DNA from: a virus
Taxonomy: Duplodnaviria > Heunggongvirae > Uroviricota > Caudoviricetes
IMG/VR virus record: IMGVR_UViG_2526164662_000033
DNA length: 15,635 bases
Direction: 5' to 3' (one strand)
Shown here: positions 12,001 through 15,000 of the stretch, one piece after another
Layout of the letters: each line of letters opens with the position of its first letter
How positions within the stretch are numbered: position 1 is the first letter of the stretch
Position numbers: made by a program

Positions 12001-15000
12001 TCGGGGAATACACCCTGACGGTGCGGGCGATAAACAGCTATGGCCAGCAGGGTGAACCTGCCACCACCACCTTCCGGATTGCCGCACCGGCAGCACCGTC
12101 GCGGATTGAGCTGACGCCGGGCTATTTTCAGATAACCGCCACGCCGCATCTTGCCGTTTATGACCCGACGGTACAGTTTGAGTTCTGGTTCTCGGAAAAG
12201 CGGATTGCGGATATCAGGCAGGTTGAAACCGCAGCCCGCTATCTTGGCTCGGCGCTGTACTGGATAGCTGCCAGTATCAATATCAAACCGGGCCATGATT
12301 ATTATTTTTATATCCGCAGTGTGAATACTGTTGGCAAATCGGCATTCGTGGAGGCTGTCGGTCGGGCGAGCGATGATGCGGAAGGTTACCTGGATTTTTT
12401 GTAAGCGTCGTCTCAGCACCGTCTGGCAGATCCTGAAATTCCTGAGAGAATAGTGGACACCAAATATGGTGGACGCTATCCATGAAATCATTAACCGCAG
12501 TGCGTAAAAAAAGCCCTAATTATCCCGTTGAGTTCAAAATCAAAATGGTTGAACTCTCGCATCGACCAGAGATCTCCGTAGCGCAACTCGCTCGTGAGCA
12601 TGGGATCAACGATAATTTGCTGTTCAAGTGGCGCCAGTACTGGCGCGAAGGAAAACTACGTCCTCCTTCAACAACAGAAAACAACGTGCCTGAGCTGCTC
12701 CCGATAACACTTGATGCCGAAGATGTTGTCCCTACAACCTCCCCCCGGTCACAACCTGTAGCTGCTGCGACACCTGAATCACTCAATATCAGCTGTGAAG
12801 TGACGTTCCGGCACGGATCACTCCGTCTGAATGGTGCCATCAGCGAAAATATCCTGAACCTGCTGATACGGGAGCTCAAACGTTGATCCCATTACCATCA
12901 GGGACAAAGATCTGGCTGGTCGCTGGCATCACCGATATGAGAAACGGCTTCAACGGCCTGGCGGCAAAGGTGCAGACGACGCTGAAAGACGATCCGATGT
13001 CAGGTCACGTTTTTATCTTCCGTGGGCGTAATGGCAGTCAGGTAAAGCTCCTCTGGTCTACCGGCGATGGACTGTGTCTGCTGACCAAACGGCTGGAGCG
13101 CGGCCGCTTCGCCTGGCCGTCAGCCCGGGATGGCAAAGTGTTCCTCACACCGGCACAGCTGGCGATGCTGCTGGAAGGTATCGACTGGCGGCAGCCTAAA
13201 AGACTGCTTACGTCCCTGACTATGTTGTAAGCCTCTTTATCCTGGTCGACGCTGAATGAGCCTGGTAATATACCCGGTATGAGCAGCTCACTTCCTGACG
13301 ATATCAATGCACTGAAACGTCTCCTTGCCGAACAGGAGGCGCTGAACCGTGCCCTGCTGGAAAAGCTGAACGAGCGTGAACGCGAAATAGACCATCTGCA
13401 GGCACAGCTGGATAAGCTGCGCCGGATGAACTTCGGCAGCCGCTCCGAAAAAGTCTCCCGTCGTATCGCACAGATGGAAGCTGACCTGAAGGCACTTCAG
13501 AAAGAAAGTGATACCCTTACCGGTCGGGTTGACGACCCGGCCGTGCAGCGCCCGCTGCGTCAAACCCGCACCCGCAAACCGTTCCCCGAATCACTCCCCC
13601 GCGATGAAAAACGGCTGCTGCCGGCAGCATCATGCTGCCCGGAATGTGGAGGCTCACTGAGCTATCTGGGTGAGGATGCCGCCGAACAGCTGGAGTTGAT
13701 GCGCAGCGCCTTCCGGGTTATCCGGACTGTACGTGAAAAGCATGCCTGTACTCAGTGCGATGCCATCGTGCAGGCCCCCGCGCCTTCACGGCCCATCGAG
13801 CGGGGTATCGCAGGACCGGGGCTGCTGGCCCGCGTGCTGATCTCAAAGTATGCAGAGCACACCCCGCTGTACCGCCAGTCTGAAATGTACGGCCGCCAGG
13901 GCGTGGAGCTGAGTCGTTCACTGCTGTCGGGCTGGGTGGATGCATGCTGCCGGCTACTGTCACCGCTGGAAGAAGCGCTTCAGGACTATGTGCTGACTGA
14001 CGGTAAGCTCCATGCTGATGACACGCCTGTCCCGGTGCTGTTGCCAGGCAATAAGAAAACGAAGACCGGGCGGTTATGGACCTACGTTCGTGACGACCGT
14101 AACGCCGGGTCAACGCTGGCGCCGGCGGTGTTGTTCGCTTACAGCCCGGACAGAAAAGGCATCCATCCGCAGACCCATCTTGCGGGGTTCAGTGGTGTAC
14201 TGCAGGCGGATGCATACGCCGGGTTCAACGAGCTGTACCGGGATGGCCGGATAACGGAAGCCGCCTGTTGGGCTCACGCCCGCCGTAAAATCCACGATGT
14301 GCACGTTCGCACCCCGTCAGCCCTGACGGAGGAAGCGCTGAAACGGATCGGCGAACTGTACGCCATCGAGGCAGAGATAAGGGGAATGACGGCGGAGCAG
14401 CGCCTTGCCGAACGTCAGTTGAAAACGAAACCGCTGCTGAAATCCCTGGAAAGCTGGCTGCGTGAAAAGATGAAAACCCTGTCGCGACACTCAGAACTGG
14501 CGAAAGCGTTCGCATACGCCCTGAACCAGTGGCCGGCGCTGACGTACTATGCAGATGATGGCTGGGCTGAGGCGGACAATAACATCGCTGAAAATGCGTT
14601 GCGGATGGTCAGTCTGGGCCGCAAAAACTACCTGTTCTTCGGTTCGGATCATGGAGGAGAGCGGGGAGCGCTGCTGTACAGCCTGATCGGGACGTGCAAA
14701 CTGAACGGAGTGGAGCCAGAAAGCTACCTCCGCTATGTCCTTGACGTCATAGCCGACTGGCCGATAAACCGGGTCGGCGAACTGCTCCCCTGGCGCGTAG
14801 CACTGCCGACTGAATAACACATCCCCGTCAATACGGTTCTTGCTGCACGCTTACGATTTTTTCAAAGGAGAAATCGGGAAAACACATCTGGCCCAGGAGC
14901 TGTGGACGCAGATTGATAACGGTCAGCTTGCGCCGGACCTGGCTGAAATCAGGACGTCCATTACGAATGTCAGCAATGAAATCACGCAGACCGTCAATAA

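Follow-up and report, generated by a model that had tools for sequence, protein, structure and literature searches.

A complete copy of the insertion sequence ISEc22 lies within J, the host specificity gene of a lambdoid prophage, in the 15,635-nucleotide stretch of DNA analysed here (IMG/VR record IMGVR_UViG_2526164662_000033; hereafter the window). We consider it very probable that ISEc22 entered J only once, in the ancestor of a lineage to which O26:H11, O111:H11 and O103 strains belong today, that the split gene was then inherited vertically, and that the prophage lost its own receptor-binding tail tip. The anatomy of the insertion, the identity of the element, the restoration of J on its removal, the empty sites in relatives and the distribution of the junctions among genomes were all observed directly. 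Transposition of ISEc22 into J duplicated an 8-bp target, GATTTTTT; a TAA supplied by the IS ends the 5′ fragment two codons on, such that only the hub and FNIII domains are encoded, and the prophage's own J would then be unable to provide a receptor-binding tip.

Gene J is interrupted at codon 816

The open reading frame of J runs from 9954 to 12404 and has 816 codons, made up of 815 J codons and a TTG (Leu), after which comes TAA. The encoded protein ends in YLDFL, with both the stop codon and the last base of the TTG coming from the IS. At the position of this TTG, restored J has TTC (Phe).

Both flanks of the element read GATTTTTT, by direct reading as well as by a scripted recount. The identity of the flanks extends over exactly 8 bases, the ninth being G on one side and C on the other. 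At the base composition of the window, the chance that two fixed 8-mers agree at all eight positions is ∼1.8e-5, and the + strand of the window contains just three occurrences of GATTTTTT. When positions 12401–14862, i.e. the IS together with one repeat, were deleted in silico, a single open frame was obtained that starts at 9954, comprises 1073 codons, reaches the end of the window without a stop and has homology to lambda J on both sides of the join. A preliminary description of the window had placed the break at codon 816, attributed the TAA to the IS and reported a perfect 8-bp duplication; the list of reading frames and the script confirmed the break and its stop codon, and the recount of both flanks confirmed the duplication. 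All of its other factual statements held as well, and nothing contradicts the insertion itself. The coordinates of the features are given in Table 1.

Table 1. Features of the split J gene, the resident ISEc22 and the ISEc23 copy at the start of the window
Feature	Position	Strand	Remarks
ISEc23 copy (IS66 family)	1–2521	−	tnp genes on − strand; cut 8 nt inside terminus by contig start
J 5′ part	9954–12400	+	codons 1–815 plus 2 nt; hub domains and FNIII-1/FNIII-2
Left target-site duplication, GATTTTTT	12393–12400	.	empty sites hold a single copy
ISEc22 (IS66 family), complete, 2454 bp	12401–14854	+	100% identity to annotated ISEc22 copies
Left terminal inverted repeat, GTAAGCGT...	12401–12426	+	first 8 nt are the reverse complement of the right end
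tnpA, 134 aa	12482–12886	+	Pfam HTH_Tnp_1, E = 9e-12
tnpB, 115 aa	12883–13230	+	Pfam TnpB_IS66 (IS66 Orf2 domain), E = 1.6e-38
tnpC, DDE transposase, 512 aa	13279–14817	+	Pfam LZ_Tnp_IS66, zf-IS66, DDE_Tnp_IS66, DDE_Tnp_IS66_C
Right terminal inverted repeat, ends ...ACGCTTAC on + strand	14829–14854	−	direct reading and script
Right target-site duplication, GATTTTTT	14855–14862	.	direct reading and script
J 3′ part	14863–15635	+	in phase after removal of IS and one repeat; truncated by contig end

The resident element is a complete ISEc22

The element is a complete and unremarkable copy of an IS66-family IS that is very common. Both termini read GTAAGCGT inward, and beyond these 8 nt the two ends match imperfectly across ∼26 nt. 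Elements of the IS66 family have imperfect terminal inverted repeats beginning GTAAGCG (ISfinder descriptions). The stop codon of tnpA overlaps tnpB within the sequence TTGA, and the product of tnpA is named 'IS66-like element accessory protein TnpA' by PGAP in relatives. The tnpC frame is uninterrupted, its DDE_Tnp_IS66 domain covering positions 1–283 of the 284 in the profile (E = 9e-107). The domains found by Pfam, the open frames and the 100% identity to annotated copies bear out the earlier assignment as an intact IS66-family element with three ORFs.

Many chromosomal and plasmid copies in RefSeq, labelled 'IS66-like element ISEc22 family transposase' by PGAP, are 100% identical to the element over its 2454 bp. 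No difference was found from RefSeq-annotated ISEc22, with which the element shares the same three genes, the GTAAGCGT termini and the 8-bp target duplication. At least 80% of the element is covered at a place in 2192 of 5426 complete E. coli genomes, and each carrier genome has roughly 10–30 matching places. The intact ORFs and the identity to so many copies suggest that this copy of ISEc22 would be active in transposition.

The insertion separates the hub from the receptor-binding part of J

On the contig, the order of the encoded Pfam domains is Phage_TAC_1, Phage_tail_T, tape-measure domains, Phage_min_tail, Phage_tail_L, NLPC_P60, Lambda_tail_I and J. The position of J thus matches the order of the lambda tail genes (major tail, chaperones G/T, tape measure, M, L, K, I, J). 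We aligned restored J by a phmmer search against PDB, in which residues 1–834 and 865–1072 matched residues 1–836 and 839–1046 of lambda gpJ (PDB 8iyk chain J, 1132 aa) with 1763 bits. Across the junction, the sequence EGYLDFFKG (containing YLDFFKG) is identical in the two proteins. The prophage protein is collinear with gpJ from residue 1, and the hub, FNIII, shaft and fibre regions are common to both. It differs from gpJ in being longer, at about 1157 aa (the J gene of relatives has 3474 nt), in having ∼30 extra residues after the junction, and in that its C-terminal receptor-binding part extends past the window.

The 5′ part of J contains the Pfam domains FNIII-A_GpJ, Phage-tail_3, Ig_J and Ig_J_second, the last of these at residues 714–815. 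The 3′ part contains Phage_Tail_Tip and the start of Ig_GpJ_C, within which the window ends (profile positions 1–48 of 135). In lambda gpJ, the order of domains is hub, FNIII-1, FNIII-2, alpha-helical shaft, central straight fibre and receptor-binding domain, and cryo-EM of the lambda tail with LamB places the shaft as a clamp on the FNIII-2 units and the receptor-binding domain in contact with LamB (PMC11101478). Codon 816 of the prophage gene corresponds to about residue 818 of the lambda protein, which falls where FNIII-2 gives way to the shaft. The predicted 816-aa product thus retains the hub and both FNIII domains and is without the shaft, the fibre and the receptor-binding domain. The 3′ part codes for the alpha-helical shaft, for the central fibre and for the beginning of the receptor-binding domain. 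Because these regions are cut off from the start codon of J, the prophage's own J would give no receptor-binding tip, and adsorption through its own tail would be lost.

A gene caller predicted a 349-aa ORF on the 3′ fragment, with a TTG start at 14840 inside the right inverted repeat, and the fibre part may be expressed from this predicted ORF. A promoter scan of positions 12300–15000 gave no promoter-like site, terminator-like sites in the IS region were no commoner than in shuffled sequences, and no obvious Shine-Dalgarno sequence was seen upstream of 14840. The split could in principle have persisted by being useful or tolerated. In one variant of this proposal the hub-plus-FNIII fragment would nucleate tails and the predicted 349-aa fibre/receptor-binding ORF, reached by read-through from tnpC, would supply the second piece of a two-piece J; in the other, an immobilised effector prophage would have been retained in the O26/O111/O103 H11 lineage, amounting to domestication. 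We found no positive support for either variant, and regard the two together as highly unlikely.

Uninterrupted copies of the site occur in related prophages

The rebuilt insertion site was found in uninterrupted form in related strains, with a single GATTTTTT. A 1200-bp version of the rebuilt site matched, in one piece and with 99.9% identity, annotated intact gpJ genes in O157:H7, O145 and other strains. A 393-bp version was 100% identical to the uninterrupted J of VT1-Sakai and of several PPompW prophage records. Two ST131 prophages are collinear with window positions 2522–12400 and 14855–15635 at 99.4–99.6% identity and likewise have one GATTTTTT. These empty sites, a comparison with which the preliminary description had proposed, support the insertion.

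The same junctions are present in many complete genomes

Each junction was searched for with a 401-bp query (12200–12600 on the left, 14655–15055 on the right). Full-length matches of 100% identity to the left query are present in 80 complete E. coli genomes; the right junction was found in 73. The difference between these two counts suggests that IS-mediated rearrangements have occurred in some genomes. Named carriers include O26:H11, O111:H11 and O103 strains, i.e. at least three O serogroups, and the carriers are 99.3–99.8% identical to the window over positions 2522–15635.

These counts also bear on whether the split is an artefact, in which a multi-copy IS was misjoined into J on a short draft contig. 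The window is the entire 15,635-bp draft contig AIGU01000019.1 (GCA_000250095.2), both ends of which are in repeats, as it begins within an IS and stops within the repeated J gene, and it has six homopolymer-length indels relative to close relatives. However, both junctions recur base for base in the 73–80 complete genomes, and a perfect 8-bp target duplication is a signature of transposition rather than of misassembly. An assembly artefact is effectively already refuted, and we assign it a negligible probability.

In all three carriers that were checked, the split J is in the same ompW-associated prophage. The split-J module of O103 RM8385 and O111:H11 8D is preceded, ∼30 kb upstream, by a phage integrase that adjoins ompW. 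In O26:H11 FWSEC0001 (NZ_CP031922.1), the tail end of the prophage is at a partial ompW and the integrase end adjoins potC, an arrangement consistent with inversion of the chromosome between two lambdoid prophages. The junctions of the window are identical to those of the ISEc22-split J pseudogene of the ompW prophage, as in NZ_CP031922.1. There, the locus extends from B9S25_RS16130 to B9S25_RS16110 and is annotated by PGAP (RefSeq) as a 'host specificity protein J' pseudogene with its C-terminus missing, followed by tnpA, tnpB, the ISEc22 transposase and, after ISEc22, a 'phage tail tip domain-containing protein' pseudogene with its N-terminus missing. Beyond the split J are lom, tail-fibre genes, nleA, nleH1-2, nleF, nleG, espM1 and the partial ompW.

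The preliminary description had taken the perfect duplication and the intact element to indicate a recent event. A recent transposition private to this strain would be consistent with the perfect duplication and with the 100% identity of the IS to other copies of ISEc22. Against it, 80 complete genomes share the left junction and 73 the right one, O26:H11, O111:H11 and O103 strains among them, and all three carriers that were checked have it in one and the same ompW-linked prophage. The resident ISEc22 has itself decayed or been hit in some carriers: in CP027331, a 1-bp deletion splits tnpC into 186 and 310 aa, and in UGFY01000002, another IS66-family element is nested in tnpA. Moreover, the 16 bases of the target duplication, together with identity to paralogues, have no dating power on such timescales. 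The claim of a recent event is therefore not supported, and a strain-private transposition is very improbable.

The occurrence of one junction in one prophage context across serogroups points instead to a single ancestral event. A single origin followed by vertical descent would account for the identical junctions and for the context shared by the three genomes. The split allele may also have spread by recombination between prophages.

Probable consequences of the split for prophage function

The preliminary description also held that the prophage is probably defective. With respect to its own tail this is reasonable, given the loss of the shaft, fibre and receptor-binding domain, and an adsorption defect in cis is most likely. 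As a statement about the prophage as a whole it requires qualification, as J is not the sole lesion and trans-complementation is possible. The word 'defective' should be read as meaning that the prophage makes no receptor-binding tip of its own, and not as meaning that it is immobile.

A prophage that is defective in cis could still be mobile if it received J or whole tails from co-resident lambdoid prophages, or if it regained J by homologous recombination. EHEC-type genomes have many near-identical copies of J (as many as 15 places in one genome match a 1200-bp J query), and co-resident lambdoid prophages may complement the split gene. The genes of FWSEC0001 that are linked to the tail module (int, xis, repressor, cro, lysis, terminase, portal and capsid) are annotated as intact. 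On the other side, carriers have extra lesions, including ISCro1-family IS elements at the tail-fibre genes and, in one strain, a second ISEc22 between the major tail and chaperone genes, and the present contig has a frameshifted K as well as an ISEc23 copy that lies upstream of V. On balance, mobility of the cis-defective prophage is a tentative possibility that we judge rather less probable than its absence.

Among the Sp prophages of O157 Sakai, Sp9 is presumably the counterpart of this prophage, judging from its effector genes. Sp9 is given a '+' for host specificity in Table 1 of the O157 Sakai study (PMC2669165), whereas J is split here. The Sakai Sp prophages resemble the present one in being lambdoid, in carrying effectors and in having IS elements and frameshifts in morphogenesis genes (Asadulghani et al. 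2009, PMC2669165). In that strain, morphogenetically defective prophages were packaged and some were transferred; in the authors' view, the prophages of the pool complement one another and recombine (PMC2669165).

As regards the individual lesions, an ISCro1-family IS66-like element was seen between the N- and C-terminal tail-fibre genes in three carriers including FWSEC0001. The carrier with two copies of ISEc22 has the second of them between its major tail and chaperone genes.

A second IS66-family element and small indels in the window

The ISEc23 copy at the start of the window separates the major tail gene from the tail completion gene, the latter lying outside the window. Its target, GGTTTTTT (2522–2529), is unoccupied in an O26 relative, and its junction was found in no complete E. 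coli genome. An ST131 prophage has an independent ISEc23 in the same orientation ∼45 bp further downstream. With its two ends both in repeats (IS and J), the contig leaves the linkage of the window to the rest of the prophage ungiven.

Six indels that change the length of homopolymers were observed relative to close relatives, at approximately 270, 415, 1004, 1108 and 1556, and at 8317. The first five fragment tnpC of ISEc23. The sixth, an additional C at 8317, shifts the frame of the tail gene K (8289–9033) relative to all relatives. No such indels relative to relatives were found in the ISEc22 and J regions. All six affect homopolymer length, and the whole window is one contig of a draft assembly; the indels may be errors of sequencing or real decay. 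Two features set the window apart from the carriers of the ompW prophage: the additional C in K and the ISEc23 that separates gp17 from the major tail gene. The additional C, like the ISEc23 junction, was not seen in any complete genome.

The copies of ISEc23 that were examined have the same terminus as ISEc22, GTAAGCGT. An unrelated ISEc23 in NZ_CP023844.1 is flanked by a duplication of GATTTTTT, the same 8-mer as that of ISEc22 in J. Other copies of ISEc23 have the duplications CGTCTTTT and GGTTTATT, the copy in the ST131 prophage has GCTCACAG, and the second ISEc22 in one carrier has GATAAGGC. Some of these 8-mers hinted at a target preference for G plus a T-run, but in view of GCTCACAG, GATAAGGC and seven distinct left flanks of ISEc22 in other species that are not T-rich, we claim no firm preference.

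The spacer between genes I and J

Genes I and J are separated by a non-coding spacer of 342 bp (9612–9953). Its − strand has a near-consensus sigma-70 promoter from 9748 to 9721 (TTCACA, 16 nt, TATAAT; 11 of 12 matches) and an intrinsic terminator from 9641 to 9625 that is followed by a T-run, which together would predict an RNA of ∼95 nt. A strong GC hairpin is present at ∼9816–9845. A search of the spacer against Rfam gave no match at the gathering threshold and none that was convincing at E ≤ 5, its predicted fold is no more stable than that of shuffled sequence (z = −0.69), and a search of the literature for strings of the spacer sequence returned no match. We considered the anti-sRNA AgvB as a candidate and rejected it, as AgvB is located at the PR′ moron site (PMC4104026).

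Significance of the insertion

The insertion is that of an IS of a known family in a known gene, and the public annotation of dozens of complete genomes already includes it. A literature search found no paper on it; the full-text matches to 'ISEc22', judged by title, concerned other organisms or topics, and a paper on the O26 mobilome (PMC5592225) does not mention the insertion. We attribute the absence of a paper to the ordinariness of the event. Lambdoid prophages in EHEC-type genomes have been grounded by many IS hits; the present one is a single instance and would mean little beyond bookkeeping. A perfect target duplication and an intact IS are, in this case, uninformative about the age of an insertion. 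The junction is a possible lineage marker for the O26/O111/O103 H11 group, and the split bears on the independent spread of a prophage that carries effector genes (nleA, nleH1-2 and nleF in O26:H11 FWSEC0001).
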